DNA of 64,000 bases, taken from the NCBI GenBank assembly GCA_036677445.1, contig JAVBWI010000026.1, forward strand, positions 271 to 64,270. The letters run 5' to 3'. The first letter of the stretch is position 1. The number at the start of each line of letters is the position of its first letter. Shown here one piece after another: positions 2,282 to 25,546 of the stretch. A program made the translations under genes and the position numbers. The DNA comes from Clostridia bacterium (GTDB taxonomy: Bacteria > Bacillota > Clostridia > Christensenellales > CAG-138). The notes below the pieces were generated by a model, which saw only the letters and a list, made by a program, of their open reading frames with translations, was not told the origin of the DNA and did not search any database.

Positions 2282-3799
2282 ATGGATAACCAACAGACCC
2301 CCGCACCCCCTGAGCCGCAGCAGGAGCTGACTGAGCAGGAGCTTAGCGAGCTCCTGCAGATAAGACGGGACAAGCTTGCCGCGCTGCAAGCCGCGGGTAA
2401 AGACCCTTTTGAGGTAATGACATTTGATCAGACCCACCACAGCCAGGATATTGTGGATGGGTTTGAGGCACTCGAAGGCCAGACCGTCCGCATCGCCGGG
2501 CGCATGATGTCTAAAAGGATCATGGGCAAGGCCAGCTTTGCACATATACTCGACGGCAAGGGTACCGTTCAGGCGTACATCCGCAGGGATGATGTCGGCG
2601 AGGATGCTTATGCTGATTTTAAGGCATTGGATATAGGCGACATACTGGGCATCGAAGGCACGGTATTTAAGACCCGCACAGGCGAGATTTCCGTACACGC
2701 GCAAAGCGTCTCACTCTTGAGCAAGTCCCTGCGTCCGCTGCCGGAAAAGTTCCACGGCCTGAAGGATTCCGAGCTTCGTTATCGGCAGCGGTATGTGGAT
2801 CTGATCATGAACCCAGAAGTGCGCGAAACGTTTGTCAAGCGCAGCCGCATTATATCGCAGATACGCCGCAGGCTGGATGAGCAGGGCTTCCTCGAAGTGG
2901 AGACGCCCGTGCTCAACACCATACCCGGCGGCGCAAACGCGCGCCCCTTCGTTACGCACCATAACACGCTGGATATCGACCTGTACCTGCGCATCGCGAC
3001 CGAGCTTCCGCTCAAGGAATGCATCGTGGGCGGCCTTGAGCGCGTATATGAGATCGGCCGTATCTTCCGCAACGAGGGCATGGATATCAAGCACAACCCG
3101 GAGTTCACCACGCTGGAGCTGTATCAGGCGTATACGGATTATAACGGCATGATGGCGCTGGTGGAGGATTTGATCGCCCATTGCGCGAAAAGCGTGCTTG
3201 GCGATACCCGTATCGTCTATCAGGGCATCGAGATAGATCTGACGCCTCCGTTTGCCCGTATGACCATGAACGAGGCCGTAAAGCAGTTTACCGGCGCGGA
3301 TTTCTTCGCGTGCCAAACGGATGAAGAAGCGCGCGCGCTGGCATGTACACTGGGCCTGGAATTTGCGGATAAAACGATTACGCGCGGCAAGCTGCTCAAC
3401 GAAGCCTTCGAGGCATTTGTGGAAGAAAAGCTGATACAGCCCACTTTCATACTCGATTATCCTGTGGAGGTTTCGCCGCTTACCAAGCGCAAGCCGGGCA
3501 CGCCGTATGTGACGGAGCGTTTTGAGCTGTTCATAGGTACAAGGGAATATGCCAATGCGTATTCCGAACTTAACGACCCGGTCGACCAGCGCGGCCGGTT
3601 TATGCAGCAGATTTCCGAGCGTGAAAAGGGCGACGATGAGGCGATGATGATAGACGAGGATTTCTGCCTCTCGTTGGAATACGGCATGCCGCCCACCGGC
3701 GGTATCGGCGTGGGCATTGACCGGCTGGTGATGCTGCTGACGGATTCGTATTCGATACGCGACGTGTTGCTGTTCCCTACAATGAAGCCAAGACGTTGA
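2282..3799 (+). CDS. lysS: lysine--tRNA ligase (class II)
   Basis: ATG at 2282 follows GAGAGG. It has an OB-fold N-domain and class II motifs ([14 protein letters not shown]). The track's GTG start at 2255 overlaps the greA stop and is less likely. Confidence 0.93.
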
Positions 3800-3975
3800 A
3801 CGAGGCCTGGACGCGAAAGCAATGTGTTATACGCAGTTGTCCTTATAATGAAGCCAAGACGTTGAACGAGGCCTGGACGCGAAAGAAAATGTGTTATACG
3901 CAGTTGTCCTTATAATGAAGCCGAGACGTTAAATGCGTTAAAACGCAGACGTGAAGCAAATGTGTTACATGCATG
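3781..3975. repeat. tandem repeat (66-67 nt, about 2.9 copies) beginning inside the lysS 3' end
   Basis: Copy 1 is 3781-3846 and copy 2 is 3847-3913; they are near-identical, with one extra nt in copy 2. Copy 3, from 3914, has diverged. Each copy starts with AATGAAGCC(A/G)AGACGTT(G/A)A, which is the last five lysS codons plus the stop. Confidence 0.85.
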
Positions 3976-4071: not shown

Positions 4072-4992
4072 ATGAAAAAAACGCTTTCCATATTGCTCGT
4101 GATTGTTTTCATGCTCTCGGCTGTGGCTTGTGCCAAGAACGAAGAGCCTGCCGGCACGATTGACTTTGATTCCGACCCATCCGCAAGCGTCCAGCCGGGT
4201 GACCCCACGGGTACGCAGTCCGGAACTACTCCGGGCGGCTCGACGGTATCCAATGCGCCGGACTCTACGGTACCGGGTAGTACGGTACCGGGCGCTTCCG
4301 TTTCTCCGGGCGCTTCGGTTTCCCCGGGCGCTTCGGTTTCCCCGGGCGCATCCACTTCGCCTACGCCGGGCAGCACAGGCGCGCCAAAGAGCTACAGCGA
4401 GGCCAAAGCCATCAATTCGGATGTCATAGGGTGGATCAAGGTGCCCGGAACCAACATCGACTATCCTATTCTATATGACGATCCTTCGGATGGCGTCTGG
4501 TTCTATAACGACCACGACATTTATAAGAAAAGCACCGGTAATCCCGGCGCCGGCTGCATCTATACGTACTACAATGTGCTTACGCGCAATGTTATCGTAA
4601 CCGGCCATAACATGCGTCAGTCCGGCACCATGCTCCACGAACTGCATAAATTGCAGGACAACAAGTCGTCGCTCAAGACGAAAGCCAACCGTACCTTCAG
4701 CATACGGCTGTTCGGTTTTACGAAGTGGGAAGTGTTCGCGCTCTACGAAACCAAGGACAGCGAACCGTCCAGTACCATTAAGTACAATATCAAGCACCTG
4801 AGTTCCTCCGACAACTCCAACAAGAAGGAGATCGAGGAATGGATCGCCAAGCAGAAGAGCCGTTCGGAGATCGATTTGGGCGTGAGCGTTTCGGCGGACG
4901 ATTTCCTGATGACCATCATTACCTGCGGCGACAATTACGATTACAGCGAAGCGCAGTCCCGCCTGTACTACTTCCTCAGGGCTGTTGAGTAA
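4072..4992 (+). CDS. class B sortase-like protein with lipoprotein signal peptide
   Basis: Lipobox LSAVAC after the signal peptide, then a Pro/Gly/Ser/Thr-rich linker. The C-terminal domain carries SrtB-type motifs: GWIKVPGTNIDYPI, TGHNM..G.M, a TC catalytic Cys (IITCGD) and a downstream Arg. The ATG follows GAAGTGAAGG. Confidence 0.7.
   Translation: MKKTLSILLVIVFMLSAVACAKNEEPAGTIDFDSDPSASVQPGDPTGTQSGTTPGGSTVSNAPDSTVPGSTVPGASVSPGASVSPGASVSPGASTSPTPGSTGAPKSYSEAKAINSDVIGWIKVPGTNIDYPILYDDPSDGVWFYNDHDIYKKSTGNPGAGCIYTYYNVLTRNVIVTGHNMRQSGTMLHELHKLQDNKSSLKTKANRTFSIRLFGFTKWEVFALYETKDSEPSSTIKYNIKHLSSSDNSNKKEIEEWIAKQKSRSEIDLGVSVSADDFLMTIITCGDNYDYSEAQSRLYYFLRAVE
4288..4349 (+). repeat. in-frame 18-nt tandem repeat (about 3.4 copies) encoding PGASVS
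   Basis: CCGGGCGCTTC(C/G)GTTTC(T/C) is repeated head to tail inside the linker of the sortase-like gene. Confidence 0.85.
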
Positions 4993-5012: not shown

Positions 5013-5291
5013 CGCGCTGCCCCAGCATATGGGGCAGCGCGCTGTATATATCGAAAAAGTGGAAGTATCCACTTTTTCGAGGCTCACCGAACAGGTTGTC
5101 GCTCGGTTTCCTGCTTACGCAGGAAAGCTGTCGCGTCAACTTGCGCTCTAAGGTGTCATTTTGCATTGCGCATGTCGATGCAAAATGACGGATTGGAAGC
5201 CTCAAGTTATACAAACAAATTGTCTCTTCACCGTCTGTAGGCTTTTTTACAGCTTGAATGCGTTGTCCCGTTATATGAGGCAGCGCGCTGT
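5013..5291. repeat. multi-hairpin intergenic insert flanked by two diverged copies of a terminator hairpin
   Basis: The hairpin CGCGCTGCCCC-AGCATAT-GGGGCAGCGCG (5013-5041) recurs at 5259-5291 (26/33 identical; 18/19 over the 3' half). Three independent stem-loops lie between the copies: 5052-5079, 5107-5126 and 5155-5189. Confidence 0.7.
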
Positions 5292-6519: not shown

Positions 6520-6766
6520 AAACGGCCCGCAGGCATGATCTGCGGGCCATGGCCGCTGACAAAGTCCATAGGACTTTGTCAGCGGATTTTCTGTAGGTTG
6601 AAATGCCGCTTTAGGTTGAAATGCCGCTTATGGCGGCACTCGCCGATTTGACGCACAAAAACGCTGCGCTGCCAGATCGGATTGAAATAGTGGGGAATTG
6701 AGATTCCCCACACCCCAGGAGGGTTTGCCAGTATTCTAAACGGCTCGCAGGCATGATCTGCGGGCC
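6520..6766. repeat. family-A multi-hairpin insert (copy 1) bracketed by a 29-nt direct duplication of a bidirectional terminator
   Basis: The direct repeats 6520-6548 and 6738-6766 are 28/29 identical. The interior (6549-6737) contains a perfect 15-bp stem (6553-6585), an 18-nt internal tandem duplication (6595-6630) and a 9-bp stem (6690-6711). It is homologous in inverted orientation to 25346-25524. Confidence 0.8.
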
Positions 6767-9659: not shown

Positions 9660-9736
9660 GGGGATGTAGCCCAGCAGGTTAGAGCGCTTCGCTCACATCG
9701 AAGAGGTCGGGGGTTCGAGCCCCTCCATCCCCACCA
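9660..9736 (+). tRNA. tRNA-Val (anticodon CAC), CCA encoded
   Basis: Cloverleaf built by hand. Acceptor GGGGATG/CATCCCC, anticodon stem CTTCG/CGAAG with loop CTCACAT, T-arm GGGGG-TTCGAGC-CCCTC. There is one C-A mismatch in the D-stem. A TTGCAT-17-TAATAT promoter-like match lies at 9616-9644. Confidence 0.85.
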
Positions 9737-9918
9737 TACAAAGGCCGCCCAAAAGGCGGTCTTTTTGTATGGTGCGATATTTCAAAGGGGCTCGAAGCCG
9801 CGTTAAGAAATCGCTCCAGTGGAGCGATTTTAGCGGCCGCGAAGCGCAGCCGACCAAAGCTGCGAGCGGTGTGAGCGAGCAGCGGGAGGCAAGCGGAGGA
9901 GCCTCTCCATCCCCACCA
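9717..9918. repeat. 162-nt hairpin-rich insert bracketed by a 20-nt duplication of the tRNA-Val 3' end
   Basis: GAGCCCCTCCATCCCCACCA (9717-9736, the tRNA 3' end) recurs as GAGCCTCTCCATCCCCACCA (9899-9918), 19/20 identical. The interior starts with the A-tract/stem/T-tract hairpin 9736-9770 and contains the GAAATCGCTCC-AGT-GGAGCGATTT hairpin. Confidence 0.8.
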
Positions 9919-9936
9919 AAATTTTAGGTAGTTATA

Positions 9937-9966
9937 GATGCCATGCGGTGAAACCCGCATGGCATC
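9937..9966 (+). terminator. intrinsic terminator candidate downstream of the tRNA locus
   Basis: 12-bp perfect stem GATGCCATGCGG / CCGCATGGCATC with a 6-nt loop, followed by ACCTTTTC. Confidence 0.55.
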
Positions 9967-10080
9967 ACCTTTTCGGGATTTTTATCCTCGTTTTTTTGTC
10001 CCTTAGTTTCATAGATGACATCGGGCTTTTTCGGCTGACGTACGGGAGTTGAACCATCGTAAACGACTGATTCGGTTAAC

Positions 10081-11220
10081 TCAATTCTCCACGCCGATCT
10101 GAACGCTCACCCCATTGACTTCCACGCCCGCATCCGCAGGAATCAGGATATACCTGCTTCCGTCGATCACCCGCGTTTCGATGAGGTCGCTCCGCTCCGG
10201 ATCAACCTTGATCACCACATCCGGTGTGCGGATCACAAACTGCTTTTTGTCGATGACGTTGGCGGGCGGAAGCTGCGCATCCGAACCAAACTGCGCGTCA
10301 AAGGCAGTGACAAAGGCCTGAACATGCGCTTCGGATACGCCGCATTCCTGCAGCACCGCGCCGATTTCCTTTTGCGATAGCAGCAACTGTTCTTGTTCCT
10401 TGCTTTCCTTGTGTCGGTCTATCATTTCGCTCAGATGCTCATGGACAGCCTGCACCACCGTGAGGCTGCAATCCTCCTTGAGCGTTTCTGTCAGTATAGC
10501 TTGGAAAGTCTCTTTCTGTGCCGCGGCGGGCATGGGCGGCTCTACATGGAATACCGTATCGATAAATTCCTGGTGGTTCTCCACGGCGTTCTTCATATAG
10601 TACAACGCGCCGTAAATGTTGGCGGCCCTGTCATCGAAGGCCGGAAATAGGAAGCCCAGTTCCGGAGCGGATACCACATAGCCCTGCGAGGTGGTGTGGA
10701 AGCGGTTCTCCGCCAGTTGATAACTTAGTTCCGCCGGGGTTTGTTTCACCGGGCATATGCTGCAAAGGATGTAGCTGAATTCCTCGCCGGAAGCCTCCTT
10801 CTGGATCTCGCCGTCCTTGGCTCTGTAGGGCACGGTATATACGTCGTGAGTCAGCAGGATGAGATAGTTGCTTTCCATTTTAAGCGCTTCAATGATCCGC
10901 TGATAGAAAGTTTGCAGCATATCCGAATTCTTTAGCCCGGTCTGACGGAGCATGGACAGAAGCTTATGCTCGTCGCTATCCATCACCTGTTTGGCGCTGA
11001 ACTCTATATTGACGAGATTCTTTCCGAGGGAACCAGACAAAGACTTCTTCAAAAGGGAAAGAAAGCGTTCTGACTCCTCCTGCGGGATGCTGGAAAGGAA
11101 TTCTTCAAACGTAGCGACAATTTTTCTGTCCTCATTGACATAACAACCGTATACGTTACCGATCATGCTTTTATCCGGCCTGAAACGGCGCCGGATCTCC
11201 CGTATCTCTTTCTCGTTCAT
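10081..11220 (-). CDS. DUF4317 family protein
   Basis: Start at MNEKEIREIRRRFRPDK (11220) follows GTGAGG. The N-terminal motif and the length (379 aa) match my recollection of clostridial DUF4317 proteins. Confidence 0.72.
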   Translation of the reverse strand: MNEKEIREIRRRFRPDKSMIGNVYGCYVNEDRKIVATFEEFLSSIPQEESERFLSLLKKSLSGSLGKNLVNIEFSAKQVMDSDEHKLLSMLRQTGLKNSDMLQTFYQRIIEALKMESNYLILLTHDVYTVPYRAKDGEIQKEASGEEFSYILCSICPVKQTPAELSYQLAENRFHTTSQGYVVSAPELGFLFPAFDDRAANIYGALYYMKNAVENHQEFIDTVFHVEPPMPAAAQKETFQAILTETLKEDCSLTVVQAVHEHLSEMIDRHKESKEQEQLLLSQKEIGAVLQECGVSEAHVQAFVTAFDAQFGSDAQLPPANVIDKKQFVIRTPDVVIKVDPERSDLIETRVIDGSRYILIPADAGVEVNGVSVQIGVEN

Positions 11221-11378
11221 GCCTAACCTCACTGTTCATGATATAAGGAAGTGCCGCCACAAAAAGCGGCAGCAGTATGAATTATATCATGCCGGAAGCG
11301 ATGTTGTCTTGCTTTGGTTTTCAGGATAGAATAAGAGCGTGCTCACGCCGAGTAGAGTTTTGGGAGGGGGCGGAAAGG

Positions 11379-12331
11379 ATGCCGGAACGGGCATACCTTT
11401 GCATCGATCTAAAGAGCTTTTACGCCTCCGTCGAATGTGTCGAGAGAGGTCTGGACCCGTTTGCGACCAACCTTGTCGTCGCTGATCCGGCCCGCGGAAG
11501 CGGGGCCATTTGCCTGGCCATTACACCTGCCATGAAAGCGCTGGGTATCCCCAACCGCTGCCGTATTTTTGAGATCCCTAAGAATGTGGAATATATCACC
11601 GCCCTCCCGCACATGAGGCGCTATATGGAGGTTTCCGCGGATATCTACTCCGTTTATCTCAAATTTATCAGTCCTGAGGACATTCATGTCTATTCCATCG
11701 ACGAGTGCTTTCTGGACGTGACCACCTACCTGGGGCTCTATTATAAAACACCCAGGGAGATGGCGGTCATGCTAATGGATACCGTTTTACGGGAAACCGG
11801 CATCTGTGCATCGGTGGGCATCGGCCCCAACCTGTTCCTTGCAAAGGTCGCATTGGACATTACGGCCAAGCACGCTACGGATACATCGGCATTTTAGATG
11901 TGGAGGAATTCAAGCGCACCATCTGGTGCCACAGACCTATCACCGACATCTGGAATATAGGCAAAGGCATTGTCAAAAGGCTGGAGAAGTACGGTGTATA
12001 TGACTTATATGGAGTAACCCAACTGGGCGAACGGCTGCTTTATAAGGAATTCGGTGTGAACGCGGAATACCTCATCGACTATGCCCGCGGCGTCGAGCCC
12101 TGCACCATCAAGGAGATCCGCGAATATAAGTCCAAGAGAAACTCCCTCTCCAACAACCAGATTCTTTTTGAGGACTATTCCTCCGATGACGCCTTCCTGT
12201 TCCTGAAAGAGATGGTGGATATAATGGTGCTGGAACTGGTGGAGAAGCAGCTGGTGACCAACTCGATCTCCCTCTCGGTCGGCTATTCCAAAGAGGCATC
12301 TCCAATACTTCTGCGGATACCGGGAATATGA
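11379..12331 (+). pseudogene. Y-family DNA polymerase (DinB/UmuC/ImpB-like), frameshifted and 3'-truncated
   Basis: The N-terminus MPERAYLCIDLKSFYASVEC is the Y-family palm motif. Reading stops at 11897 and resumes one frame over (..GYIGILDVEEFKRTIW..), which implies a 1-nt indel near 11875-11885. The little-finger region is cut off at about 12300 by a transposase fragment. Confidence 0.8.
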
Positions 12332-16399: not shown

Positions 16400-16545
16400 C
16401 ATGATAATAAAGTCTGCTCAAGTCCGGCAGGGGAGTCCCCACTGACGGCTCTACGCGGCTTCGACTCCCTTACCCGGCAGGGAAGTCTCCGCTTAGCCTC
16501 CCACAGCTTGCGACGGCCCGCAGGCCTAGAGTCTGTTTTAAAACC
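16400..16545. repeat. GC-rich modular intergenic repeat (family B)
   Basis: It shares a 26-mer, GCGACGGCCC(G/A)CAGGCCTAG(A/T)GTC(T/C)G, between 16511-16536 and 37204-37229 (23/26 identical). In inverted orientation it also shares TCGAAGCCGCGT and GGGAGGC(T)AAGCGGAG with 9791-9898. Confidence 0.6.
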
Positions 16546-16587
16546 CAACACTTGAAGAAAAAGTGCGCCAAGGATAGAATGAGAAAC

Positions 16588-17228
16588 ATGAAGCGACATG
16601 AATTAAGCAAAAGACAATGGGATAGTCTCAAAGACCTGTTTCCTCCGGAACGAAAGCCCCAAGGCGGACGTCCGGGAAAAAGTAACCAGGAGATGCTCAA
16701 TGCAATCCTGTATTGGCTGAACACAGGGATTCCGTGGCGAGATCTACCGGAACGCTTCGGCCCTTGGCAAAGTGTATACAGTCGGTTCCGTGCGTGGACG
16801 CTGGCAGGAGTATGGGAAAAGGTGCTTACCGCTTTGATGGGACAGGATATCGTAGAGGAGACAACGTTGATGCTGGACAGCTCTACAATCAAAGTGCATC
16901 AGCATGCCAGCGGTGTAAAAAAGGGCGCTATGACGAGGAAACCGGACGAAGCCGGGGCGGGTTGACGATAAAGGTTCATGCGGTGACAGATGGGCTTGGG
17001 AATCCATTGCGCTTTATGCTCTCCAGCGGTAACCGCAACGACATCTGTATGGCGCAGTCGTTGTTGGAGCCCTTTGATCTGCGAAGAAAACTGATATTGG
17101 CGGACAAGGGTTACGATAGTGACAAATTCGTCCGCTGGATAGAGGATCGGGGTGGCATTGCGGTAATCCATGCCCAGCGCTTTTCCACTCGGTACTATTC
17201 AGACATTCTCGAACAAAGTATAATATAA
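16588..17228 (+). mobile_element. IS5-family (IS427/IS1031-like) transposase remnant, two ORFs with a -1 frameshift site, 3'-truncated
   Basis: OrfA reads MKRHELSKRQWDSLKDLFPPERKPQGGRP...WRDLPERFGPW. The A6G slippery run at 16927-16933 links it to the -1 frame (GRSRGGLTIKVHAVTDGLGNPL, ADKGYDSD). Homology ends at about 17170, before the catalytic Glu region. Confidence 0.8.
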
Positions 17229-25323: not shown

Positions 25324-25546
25324 AAACCTCCAGAAGTTCTGGAGGTTCAGAGTATCGATAAACCCTCTCCATGGGGGTGTGGCGGAGTAGAATACCCCCA
25401 CTTTTAATCCGATTTGACATCGCAGCGTCTTTGTGCGTCAAATCGGCGGAAAAATGCCGCATGAGCGGCATTTTAACCCACCAAAAACCCATCGACAAAG
25501 TCCACAGGACTTTGTCGATGGTCTAAACATCCAGAAGTTCTGGAGG
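25324..25546. repeat. family-A multi-hairpin insert (copy 2, inverted) bracketed by a 22-nt direct duplication of a hairpin
   Basis: AAAC(C/A)TCCAGAAGTTCTGGAGG occurs at 25324-25345 and 25525-25546 (21/22 identical). The interior (25346-25524) is collinear with the reverse complement of 6549-6737 and includes a perfect 15-bp stem at 25489-25521. Confidence 0.8.

Follow-up and report, generated by a model that had tools for sequence, protein, structure and literature searches.

A single tRNA-Val(CAC) gene, called by ARAGORN and Rfam at positions 9660 to 9736, is followed in the window (the whole 64-kb stretch of DNA analyzed here) by a 162-nt noncoding insert that is flanked on both sides by 20-nt copies of the tRNA end (Table 1). 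The second copy is identical to the first, GAGCCCCTCCATCCCCACCA, at 19 of 20 positions, the single difference being a C-to-T change at tRNA position 62, and these two are the only matches in 64 kb at up to three mismatches, with 0.01 expected. The direct repeats match the 3′ part of the target tRNA and the tRNA stays intact, as in att-flanked elements; the att-like duplication of a tRNA 3′ end around a hairpin-rich insert that had been proposed in a first-pass annotation of this DNA was thus borne out. The insert was also rightly described as noncoding: it is crossed by short overlapping ORFs only, none of them of note, and the homologous units described below differ in length (92 to 154 nt), which argues against coding. 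The region folds much better than shuffled sequence (z = -8.9).

Table 1. Features of the tRNA-Val locus and of the related relic in the window.
Feature	Positions	Strand	Basis
tRNA-Val(CAC), intact, CCA encoded	9660-9736	+	ARAGORN; Rfam tRNA, 64.3 bits
Repeat copy 1 (O), tRNA positions 57-76: T-loop, T-stem and acceptor 3′ strands, CCA	9717-9736	+	
Hairpin H1, terminator-like (A-tract, GC stem, T-tract), beginning directly after CCA	9737-9769	+	folds
TGGTG, inverted copy of tRNA positions 72-76, distal part of O′	9770-9774	+	
AT-rich filler CGATATTTCAAA, in place of an acceptor-strand complement (positions 64-71); predicted bubble of the folded hairpin	9775-9786	+	
GGGGCTC, inverted copy of tRNA positions 57-63, proximal part of O′	9787-9793	+	specificity matrix; covariation count
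Conserved family core, GAAGCCGCG..AAATCGCTCC-NGT-GGAGCGATTTTAGCGGCCG, 46 nt, including H2	9794-9839	+	identity to other loci; alignment A1
Palindrome H2, perfect, GAAATCGCTCC-AGT-GGAGCGATTT	9807-9830	+	
Variable hairpin-rich 3′ half of the unit, ending in GGGAGGCAAGCGGAG	9840-9898	+	
Repeat copy 2 (O), displaced tRNA positions 57-76, one mismatch	9899-9918	+	
Hairpin common to relatives, outside the element; terminator of the convergent DUF4317 gene	9937-9966		
Degenerate relic of the same family, without a tRNA, abutting an IS5-family element	16424-16523	-	

The insert is built of distinct modules. Both structures singled out in the first-pass annotation, a hairpin right after the tRNA and a palindrome with an AGT center, are present. 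The stem of the hairpin (H1) extends into the tRNA end, where CACCA (9732 to 9736) pairs with TGGTG, and the sequence of the hairpin is different in each of the homologous loci compared. Beyond it, both ends of the repeat recur as inverted copies, followed by the core with the palindrome H2 and a variable 3′ half in which a GTGAGCG motif is loosely conserved. The junctions read TTC/GAGCC and GGGGCTC/GAAGCC (slashes mark the joints). The GC-rich modules of the insert do recur in inverted orientation near 16.4 to 16.5 kb, as had been noted: TCGAAGCCGCGT is matched exactly on the minus strand at 16453 to 16464, and GGGAGGC(T)AAGCGGAG lies at about 16487 to 16502. They belong to the relic, which consists, in order, of the right end of a unit, a short O-like piece (ACTTCCCTGCCGG), the left end of a unit (AAGGGAGTCGAAGCCGCGT) from which H2 is deleted, and a second O-like piece. 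The hairpin at 9937 to 9966 is present as well, but it is not necessarily the original terminator of the tRNA for which it had been taken: it is conserved behind the DUF4317 gene in a relative (L134) that has no tRNA-Val there and is therefore the terminator of at least that convergent gene.

Related units behind other tRNA genes

The core is 78 to 95% identical, over 38 to 78 nt, to units in other Clostridia MAGs and gut metagenomes (loci L003, L009, L015, L032, and L122 to L131). These units lie at tRNA-Met ends (L009 and L032), at a Met-like (L003) and a Leu-like (L015) end, behind tRNA-Gly(GCC) (L122/L125), and, in eight human-gut contigs with one or two units each, behind tRNA-Leu(GAG); at least six different repeats occur together with this one core. 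The units are often arranged in tandem, with two or three per locus, and their copy number is polymorphic among strains. Their distribution is sporadic and crosses phyla, and related genomes use different tRNAs. Among the matches listed for the strict pattern, a genome has no more than one or two loci, a low number for an active mobile element: two in the window (at 9.7 kb and the relic at 16.4 kb) and one in each of the other genomes. A genome-wide pattern limited to H2 was too permissive, given that its matches, at least 120, were mostly alphaproteobacterial palindromes. No element with such a layout was found described in the literature.

The layout itself is constant: the tRNA is followed by a hairpin that abuts its CCA, then by both ends of the repeat in inverted form with unrelated, mostly AT-rich filler between them, and finally by the core and the direct tRNA copy. 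In all loci, the direct copy begins at T-loop position 57. The repeat spans 17 to 66 nt across the family, covering the last 17 to 24 nt of the tRNA and reaching 66 nt where the terminator is included. Behind tRNA-Gly, the second copy of the repeat ends 6 nt before tRNA-Lys, and the hairpin must therefore belong to the insert. Internal units of tandem arrays are devoid of the hairpin in L009, L015, and L032 and keep it in L123.

The inverted copy tracks the target. The 7 nt immediately to the left of the core are the reverse complement of positions 57 to 63 of the cognate tRNA at 7 of 7 positions (6 of 7 for tRNA-Gly), compared with 3 to 6 matches to tRNAs that differ in this segment, and the specificity matrix shows this segment to be specific for the cognate tRNA in all loci. 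In an alignment of hand-excerpted segments, pairing in the helix between the inverted copy and the repeat reaches 98%, and 5 of the 7 pairs show double changes; none of 500 shuffles of these segments reached the observed value, and controls in which the segments were slid had 29 to 49% paired cells. For example, the second unit of L015 has a C-to-A change in the repeat and the matching G-to-T change in the inverted copy. Folded as single strands, all eight loci examined form a basal helix of 5 to 8 bp, a bubble, and a long distal helix that starts from about positions 71 to 76, with fold z scores of -5 to -11. We think that the repeat, the hairpin, and the inverted copy, folded on one strand, constitute the attachment site of the element, in the form of a long hairpin with a central bubble.

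These features could also be read as those of a resident functional RNA or a tRNA 3′-trailer module, that is, a small structured RNA, paired between its 5′ end and its tRNA-like 3′ end, that is retained beside tRNA genes and owes its spread to duplication and gene conversion instead of transposition. The compensatory changes preserve pairing between the inverted segment and the right-hand repeat of the same unit, as such an RNA would have it; the mismatches in the hairpin stem on the tRNA-sense strand are G.T in eight cases and A.C in one, which indicates selection on that strand; and the copy number per genome, among the matches listed, is low. Moreover, in Thalassospira, the H2 module is native to the spacer between 5S and tRNA-fMet of the rRNA operon, and X+O units occupy places where a tRNA would be expected. 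Conversely, no Rfam family corresponds to the unit. Against the Rfam covariance models, the window passes for tRNA only, its weak matches at E-values up to 10 being far below gathering, and in the window and seven loci, searches at gathering and at an E-value of 10 yielded nothing except tRNA and rRNA. Between the tRNA and the unit stands H1, a good terminator, and this stretch showed no promoter-like site on the tRNA strand. The sporadic cross-phylum spread, with different tRNAs in related genomes, and the copy-number polymorphism among strains also argue against a resident RNA, as do L009 and L032, the hairpins of which are wholly different despite near-identical tRNAs and cores. Accordingly, we regard a resident RNA as improbable.

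The hairpins of L009 and L032 are perfect 21- to 23-bp palindromes that take in the CCA end, a feature that would fit template switching during replication at a highly transcribed, structured tRNA end. Two switches at inverted repeats are expected to produce a direct-inverted-direct triplication, with foreign sequence copied at the switch point, and the observed order (direct copy, hairpin center, inverted copy, insert, and direct copy) is the expected one. This scenario, however, leaves unexplained the constant 46-nt core, the constant junction between positions 56 and 57, and the filler that invariably stands in for the acceptor part of the inverted copy; we consider it very unlikely.

Several known structures were rejected as well: a group II intron domain V (on inspection, neither the loop nor the stem lengths agree), a T-box (wrong position, on inspection), a permuted tmRNA (ARAGORN negative), and a tRNA pseudogene (what the left flank corresponds to is the reverse complement of positions 57 to 63, not positions 49 to 56). 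IS200/IS605-type elements, for their part, give no duplication.

Other inserts and the islands at the tRNA-Val end

Other inserts in the window bear on the possibility of a MITE-like insertion by a structure-targeting transposase that cuts on both sides of a folded target and leaves a long, variable duplication, which corresponds to the general stem-loop-targeting mechanism suggested in the first-pass annotation. Insert A (6549 to 6737) is a proven insertion, because the relative L142 has one terminator hairpin (the empty state), against two 29-nt copies with 189 nt between them in the window. Insert B (25346 to 25524), an inverted homolog of A, is flanked by a different, 22-nt hairpin duplication; the differing flanks of A and B imply that the target is copied at insertion rather than carried by the element. 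Both set their own terminator hairpin beside the upstream target copy, as the tRNA element does, and the tRNA family, too, combines one core with many different repeats. Transposition into hairpins is known for IS1272 of the IS1182 family, which selects terminator hairpins by structure, not by sequence (PMC4923244, PMC5678879). However, IS1272 removes part of the hairpin and yields deletions with no duplication. In addition, the duplicated tRNA piece (positions 57 to 76) is not itself a stem-loop, and the repeats range from 17 to 66 nt. Furthermore, the element contains, between the repeats, an inverted segment specific to the target; a pure target-site duplication cannot make such a segment, and insert A lacks it. 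The first-pass annotation had raised the prospect that the tRNA insert shares its ends with the other inserts, but neither the insert nor its family has sequence similarity to A, B, or C. There is no matching transposase in the window, where only an IS5-family one occurs, and no parent IS was found for the tRNA-Val insert. Like MITEs, the units are small, noncoding, structured, and apparently nonautonomous, with inverted-repeat ends; in contrast to MITEs, these ends copy the target tRNA and not transposase repeats, and the duplication is 17 to 66 nt rather than short and fixed. A transposase origin is thus rather unlikely.

The tRNA-Val end is a real attachment site, given that an integrase-bearing island occupies it in relatives. 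In L139, the tRNA-Val is followed by a hairpin and then by a frameshifted tyrosine integrase (a pseudogene), and the other junction of a prophage-like region is seen in L132/L133, at ..CCATCCCCACCA; a prophage-like island is thus located at the tRNA-Val end in both cases. Seven IMG/VR viral contigs (L146 to L152) also hold the tRNA-Val(CAC) 3′ segment, four as a partial block and three as a whole or cut gene, directly followed by a terminator-like hairpin, which makes a hairpin abutting the CCA an ordinary attP-type layout. No true empty tRNA-Val site was recovered, only alternative occupants: the syntenic relatives all carry the island, and the DUF4317 homologs P0002 to P0005 and P0008 show no synteny with the window.

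Another reading is that the 20-mers once enclosed an integrase-bearing island or prophage and that the insert is the ordinary remnant of its deletion. Close relatives have an island at exactly this tRNA-Val end, with the integrase decaying in L139, and the viral tRNA-Val 3′ blocks directly precede a hairpin as the tRNA here precedes H1. Yet alignment of the insert with 400 nt from each end of the relatives' island revealed no significant similarity: on the left, 25 of 500 shuffles attained the score, and on the right there was none. The core is missing from the viral contigs with the tRNA-Val 3′ end, and the inverted, bubble-forming repeat copy is absent from those examined; in scans of viral contigs, the core pattern matched only an alphaproteobacterial phage REP, and the tRNA-Leu empty-site and 3′-end patterns had no match. 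Finally, independent random deletions would not give rise to one and the same core and architecture at five or more further tRNAs, beside ordinary genes and in tandem. A deletion remnant is therefore quite improbable.

In its more specific form, as the collapsed remnant of the island that follows, this notion from the first-pass annotation was not supported either. The DNA to the right of copy 2 (DUF4317, dinB, sortase, and LRR genes) is syntenic in L132, where similarity picks up again at 9907, inside copy 2, and is not bounded by the repeat. Comparison of the locus among relatives did reveal an island with a decayed integrase, but one to which the insert has no significant similarity; the insert is instead a member of a recurrent family of small elements at other tRNAs.

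No recombinase is linked to the units. None of the large ORFs between 4 and 37 kb of the window, all scanned with Pfam, has a recombinase domain, in agreement with the earlier remark that there is no integrase near the insert; the sole transposase is the IS5-family one at 16.5 kb. The unit-flanking ORFs scanned with Pfam in L003, L009, L015, L032, L125, L126, and L127 include no integrase and no transposase; those that are recognizable are mostly housekeeping genes, apart from a phage terminase downstream in the gut contig L126. There is no IntI-like gene in the window, and the vicinity yielded neither an IntI nor a Xer gene; the rest of the genome is expected to contain xer genes.

A possible mode of integration and its implications

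With a probability of about one half, the family is best explained as miniature, noncoding, nonautonomous integrative elements specific for tRNA 3′ ends, of which 9737 to 9898 is one copy. A unit of about 90 to 205 nt would integrate at the 3′ end of a tRNA gene, keeping the tRNA intact and displacing a second copy of its last nucleotides, always with the junction between T-loop positions 56 and 57. It would bring a hairpin, usually a terminator, directly after the CCA; the inverted ends (positions 72 to 76 and 57 to 63) with unrelated, mostly AT-rich filler between them; and the conserved 46-nt core with its REP-like palindrome. The most likely route would be Campbell-type site-specific recombination between a small circular form and the tRNA end, by a recombinase acting in trans, probably a tyrosine recombinase, and such integration may continue today. 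The predicted empty site is GGTTCGAGCCCCTCCATCCCCACCAAAATTTTAGG / ..GGGGGTTCGAGCCCCTCCATCCCCACCAAAATTTTAGGTAG, and the predicted circle or tandem junction is ..GCAAGCGGAG-GAGCC..CCACCA-TACAAAGG or, in a longer form, ..GGAGGCAAGCGGAG/GAGCC[CT]CTCCATCCCCACCA/TACAAAGGCCGCC. The combination of one core with at least six repeats speaks against such integrative elements, since the 20-nt identity block of a classical attP is not easily changed. A core with many repeats needs either frequent retargeting or copying of the target whenever the element inserts; retargeting might proceed by gene conversion from a neighboring tRNA together with two to four compensatory changes.

Integrase-encoding islands and prophages at tRNAs, and CIMEs, share much with these elements: direct repeats of a tRNA 3′ segment, a reconstituted tRNA followed at once by a terminator borne by the element, tandem accretion at one site, and, in the relatives, use of the same tRNA-Val end. 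The differences are that the insert is a gene-less 162 nt, that at least six tRNA repeats go with one core, and that there is an inverted, bubble-forming copy of the repeat. Unlike autonomous tRNA elements, the units have no integrase of their own, a trait in common with CIMEs. However, CIMEs, as known from the Streptococcus thermophilus ICESt literature, are integrase-less, cis-mobilizable island derivatives, whereas the insert has no significant similarity to the island ends or the viral contigs and shows no sign of derivation from a larger element by internal deletion.

The palindrome has counterparts elsewhere. H2 (AAATCGCTCC-NNN-GGAGCGATTT) is a high-copy, often tandem extragenic palindrome of the REP/BIME kind in Devosia, Thalassospira, and Rhodobacterales, where the matches include one identical at 29 of 29 nt and copies directly after tRNA-Val (L023 and L095). 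In the Clostridia loci, by contrast, H2 is low-copy (once in the 64-kb window) and always within a tRNA-end unit; no RAYT-type transposase was seen, and REPs lack flanking duplicated tRNA ends.

Parallels in layout are the attP(+) of CTX phage, other Xer-exploiting elements, and integron attC, with the same order of site, variable hairpin, imperfect inverted site, body, and site. By analogy, this order is the product of single-strand-exchange integration of a folded hairpin site, and the site here may be presented as folded single-stranded DNA in a comparable way. As in attC and attP(+), two paired arms surround an unpaired bubble (the eight loci fold alike, and the basal arm covaries), and the distal hairpin, hypervariable in sequence and constant in structure, recalls the variable terminal structure of attC. 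In contrast to attC and attP(+), the target is a tRNA end and not dif or attI, inspection disclosed neither GTTRRRY/RYYYAAC boxes nor dif-like XerC/D arms, and a single-stranded stage is suggested by analogy only. A bolder possibility, which we put forward tentatively and consider doubtful, is that gene-less cassettes with tRNA 3′ ends as their primary site use a folded single-stranded att that mimics the duplex tRNA end (paired arms at 57 to 63 and 72 to 76 around an unpaired acceptor-strand center) and a host or phage tyrosine recombinase in trans, in an integron/CTX-like single-strand pathway common to Clostridia and Alphaproteobacteria.

The 3′ ends of tRNA genes are classic landing sites of islands and prophages, and partial tRNA copies are routinely taken as scars of lost islands. 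These findings indicate that a partial copy of this kind can instead belong to a complete element that recurs, lacks genes, and has a core of its own and a target-mimicking hairpin. Island-finding programs that rely on tRNA fragments as boundaries would miscall these loci. Because each unit carries a terminator, it can insulate or rewire tRNA operons, the tRNA-Gly/tRNA-Lys case being an example. To our knowledge, single-strand site-specific recombination has so far been known for integron cassettes and Xer-exploiting phages; if the folded-site idea is true, it reaches tRNA genes as well and would account for the tandem arrays of tRNA-end fragments found in genomes.

An element behind tRNA-Val and its relatives

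The 3'-terminal 20 nt of the tRNA-Val(CAC) gene, which in tRNA numbering begin at T-loop position 57 and finish with the CCA, recur with one mismatch beyond a 162-nt insert. No third copy with ≤3 mismatches is present in 64 kb (0.01 expected). The duplication described in the first-pass annotation is thus real and non-random, and all the features listed there for the insert were found within its 162 nt. The entire locus is identical in a Logan assembly (L001) and is therefore no assembly artifact of the window. The insert stretch folds far better than shuffled sequence (z = -8.9). The reverse complement of the tRNA-Val anticodon arm (GTGAGCGAAGCGC) is matched by each of two 9-mers in the variable half of the unit. 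Since units behind other tRNAs likewise carry a GTGAGCG-like motif, these 9-mers may represent a motif of the family or a relic of the unit's origin.

One genome per species was scanned with the palindrome of the insert (H2) as an exact pattern. Among the matches listed, alphaproteobacterial palindromes prevailed, joined by at least four loci in Bacillota/Eubacteriales MAGs, where the likeness to the insert spans the whole core (85 to 93% over 47 to 78 nt). A metagenome scan with a stricter pattern added ten further contigs (78 to 95% over 38 to 64 nt). Where the ORFs neighboring the units were scanned against Pfam, no integrase or transposase was found; the recognizable ones are mostly ordinary genes (MotA/B, oxidoreductases, regulators, and an ABC transporter), plus one phage terminase. 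The insert is no ordinary scar; it belongs to a family of elements that recurs at tRNA ends. The family is absent from Rfam, and no description of it was found in the literature searched.

The GC-rich modules reported to recur, inverted, near 16.5 kb are indeed there, with their order swapped, as a decayed family copy. They read that way because the stretch is a minus-strand junction, in which the right end (..GGGAGGCTAAGCGGAG) and 15 nt of O-like sequence (O being the repeated tRNA 3' segment) come before the left end (AAGGGAGTCGAAGCCGCGT, with H2 deleted) and the O-like GGACTCCCCTGCCGG. The stretch resembles a boundary between two tandem units, now decayed, that belonged to another tRNA.

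The host belongs to the Clostridia, is uncultured, and forms spores; the closest named homologs of its DUF4317 protein are in Neglectibacter and Caproiciproducens (~60% identity). The region at ~10 to 36 kb is G+C-poor and carries two-component systems, ABC transporters, and a beta-lactamase-fold protein. Pfam scans found no recombinase in it, in agreement with the reported absence of an integrase near the insert. The split dinB/IMS-family polymerase gene, a single 419-aa gene in the relative L132, is probably a recent pseudogene.

Features of the window and units of the family at other loci
Feature	Location	Strand	Description
tRNA-Val(CAC)	9660-9736	plus	sole tRNA gene of the window (ARAGORN; Rfam, 64 bits)
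tRNA 3' end, first copy	9717-9736	plus	GAGCCCCTCCATCCCCACCA
tRNA 3' end, second copy	9899-9918		one mismatch
Insert	9737-9898		162 nt
H1	9737-9769		hairpin right after CCA
Inverted segment	9770-9774, 9787-9793		filler at 9775-9786
Core	9794-9839		H2 at 9807-9830
9-mer stretch of the variable half	9829-9880		9-mers GCGAAGCGC, TGTGAGCGA
Decayed family copy	~16424-16523	minus	unit right end, O-like piece, unit left end, second O-like piece
IS5-family element	16552-17228		directly adjoins decayed copy; DUF4096 + DDE_Tnp_1, two overlapping frames
EamA transporter, sporulation gene yunB	left of tRNA-Val locus		
DUF4317 gene, split dinB-type gene, sortase, LRR surface protein, AraC regulator, IS5-family element	right side	convergent	
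dinB/IMS-family gene	11277-12331		split into 206-aa and 143-aa ORFs
Tandem repeat	3774-3933		~2.4 copies of a 66-67-nt unit, 94-96% identical; between gene ending at 3799 and sortase-domain gene at 4072
Insert A	6549-6737		189 nt; with hairpin copies, 6520-6766
Insert B	25346-25524	inverted relative to A	with hairpin copies, 25324-25546
Insert C	5046-5259		with terminator copies, 5014-5291
Units, contig L009			two tandem tRNA-Met genes, then two units
Units, contig L032			two tandem tRNA-Met genes, then three units
Units, contig L015			Leu-like tRNA end, then two units
Units, contig L003			one and a half units, Met-like end
Unit, contigs L122/L125			single unit between tRNA-Gly(GCC) and tRNA-Lys(CTT)
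Units, eight human-gut contigs of one species			tRNA-Leu(GAG), then one or two units
Alphaproteobacterial palindrome	L002 1-800; L061 6270-6750; L023 1650-1930; L095 5700-6060; L039 4650-5050		AAATCGCTCC-NNN-GGAGCGATTT, up to 29/29 nt equal to the Clostridia core

Constant architecture and target-matched arms

Read 5' to 3' on the tRNA strand, the first units of all loci share one order: tRNA, H1, filler, a 7-nt inverted segment, the core, a variable hairpin-rich stretch, and a direct tRNA copy. H1 starts immediately after CCA, and its stem runs on into the tRNA end (CACCA/TGGTG in the window). The filler comprises 5 to 13 nt of unrelated, mostly AT-rich sequence, and the conserved core reads GAAGCCGCG-(0-16 nt)-AAATCGCTCC-NGT-GGAGCGATTTTAGCGGCCG. 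The direct copy at the 3' end of the unit starts at tRNA position 57 in all first units, so that the junction always lies between C56 and R57, and it ends at position 73 or 76; it runs 4 nt past CCA at the Gly locus and includes the whole terminator plus 6 nt at the Leu locus (66 nt in total). In L122 the second copy lies 6 nt before tRNA-Lys, the normal spacing of a tRNA operon, and therefore the hairpin came with the insert. The H1 sequence differs at every locus, even between L009 and L032, which share the same tRNAs and have cores ~90% alike; strains of the gut species carry two H1 alleles.

The 7 nt before the core are the reverse complement of T-loop/T-stem positions 57 to 63 of each locus's own tRNA: the match to the cognate tRNA is 7/7 (Gly, 6/7), versus only 3 to 6 of 7 for tRNAs that differ at these positions. 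The initial 4 to 5 nt after H1 are likewise complementary to positions 72/73 to 76, discriminator base included (TGGA if the discriminator is T). In an excerpt alignment hand-assembled from the relevant segments, which tests solely the pairing named here, 98% of the basal helix is paired, and at five of the seven pairs both partners have changed; the observed value was reached by 0 of 500 shuffles, and sliding the partner left 29 to 49% of cells paired. Within L015, unit 2 has the right-hand repeat AAGTCCAAT and the inverted segment ATTGGACTT and unit 1 has AAGTCCCAT and GGGACTT, so the inverted segment covaries with the right-hand repeat within one unit. That such units are by-products of template switching is barely credible.

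Folded as a single DNA strand, the repeat, H1, and inverted segment adopt one shape at all eight loci (z of -5 to -11), composed of a basal helix of 5 to 8 bp, an asymmetric bubble of tRNA positions 64 to 71 against the filler, and a long distal helix from ~positions 71 to 76 through H1. By analogy, the two paired arms, unpaired center, and hypervariable distal hairpin resemble integron attC. Mismatches in the H1 stem on the tRNA-sense strand are G.T in eight cases and A.C in one; thus, the hairpin is constrained on that strand, as termination of the tRNA transcript would predict. A resident structured RNA is an improbable reading of these units.

Two further observations come from tRNA-Leu loci. 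In gut contig L124 (minus strand, ~0-based 800 to 850 of the reverse complement), precisely 7 nt are missing from the T-loop/T-stem of tRNA-Leu(GAG) (positions 57 to 63 or 58 to 64), the same 7 nt as the basal arm of the element's hairpin, and ARAGORN calls no tRNA there; the loss could reflect assembly noise, slippage between TCA repeats, or an aberrant recombination event. Four gut contigs (L126, L127, L130, and L131) begin to diverge from one another ~200 nt past the unit array, where phage terminase genes follow in L126 and housekeeping genes in L127, L130 has a 104-nt piece repeated ~7.4 kb away, and L131 has ~213 nt extra. This point looks like a candidate second integration hot spot beside the array.

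The tRNA-Val attachment site and inserts at terminators

As judged from related contigs, the 3' end of tRNA-Val is itself a true attachment site. In L139, whose yunB product is 91% identical, the same tRNA-Val and hairpin are followed by a frameshifted tyrosine integrase (..HMLRHTYATML..LGHADVETTLRIYTH..) and HTH genes. L132 and L133 (DUF4317 product 95% identical; 92% nucleotide identity to window positions 9907-12299) hold the opposite junction, where a prophage-like region (ParB_N, CI-like repressor) ends ..gggtgtcgag-CCATCCCCACCA-aaattcagg and similarity to the window starts within the second repeat copy. Seven IMG/VR viral contigs carry the tRNA-Val(CAC) 3' segment with a terminator-like hairpin immediately after it, four as a partial block of ~26 to 45 nt and three as a whole or cut gene; a partial tRNA 3' block next to a hairpin is the classical attP layout.

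According to the first-pass annotation, the insert would be an ordinary deletion remnant if relatives had an element with an integrase flanked by these 20-mers; such relatives are thus found in form. The conclusion does not follow, because the 162 nt show no significant similarity to either end of the relatives' island, the viral contigs bearing the tRNA-Val 3' segment lack the family core, and the same core recurs at other tRNAs; we regard a remnant of a larger element as quite improbable. Nor is a collapsed form of the island that follows supported: the DNA right of the repeat is common to L132, and the low-G+C region is therefore not bounded by the tRNA-Val site.

Three separate inserts lie at terminator hairpins. 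The terminator hairpin of the DUF4349 gene, duplicated as 29-nt copies, brackets the non-coding insert A, which brings a further terminator hairpin of its own, placed 6 nt past copy 1. In the relative L142 the site is empty, and a single hairpin leads into the same downstream sequence; therefore, A is a true insertion that duplicated the whole hairpin. Insert B, an inverted homolog of A (54 nt at 85%) flanked by a different 22-nt hairpin duplication, belongs to the same element family and sits at an unrelated target. The hairpin-rich insert C lies between two diverged 32-nt terminator copies (81%) and is partly present, without its distal part, in L142 and L143 (81% over 111 nt); it is therefore older than A. 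These cases prove that hairpin-duplicating insertion occurs in the genome. The nearest parallel found was IS1272 (IS1182 family); it also targets terminator hairpins but deletes them rather than duplicating them (PMC4923244, PMC5678879). That a structure-targeting transposase likewise duplicated its target at tRNA-Val is unlikely: no sequence is shared between A, B, or C and the tRNA element, and, unlike the latter, they have no target-specific inverted segment.

Proposed mechanism and spread of the core

We favor, with a probability of about 0.5, a site-specific element that is miniature and non-autonomous and depends on a recombinase supplied in trans. A circular form would integrate by a single crossover within its own copy of the tRNA segment, giving a repeat, then a variable hairpin, an imperfect inverted repeat, the body, and a second repeat. 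One strand exchange at a folded hairpin site on single-stranded DNA would yield this very order, as it does for CTX-phage attP(+), and by this analogy a single-strand version of the element is a less likely possibility. The main difficulty for the site-specific element is that one core is joined with at least six different tRNA repeats, which requires retargeting. Gene conversion from the neighboring tRNA could replace the repeat, after which the inverted segment would acquire two to four compensatory changes, a plausible course given the 10 to 25% core divergence. The family is characterized at the structural level, and its mechanism is a proposal.

H2 with its 3' flank is matched (29/29 nt) by an extragenic palindrome that Devosia, Thalassospira, and Rhodobacterales carry in high copy number, often in tandem, and copies of which also lie directly after tRNA-Val(TAC). 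Thalassospira has tandem units of 298 nt, every one of which finishes with the final 20 nt of tRNA-fMet and the terminator of that gene; they contain H2 and a segment that by eye resembles the 3' half of the window's unit, and they lack the inverted segment. The alphaproteobacterial locus L061 has the same layout, and there the tRNA-fMet closes an rRNA operon. The identity of H2 across phyla points to horizontal transfer of the core module, if not of more.
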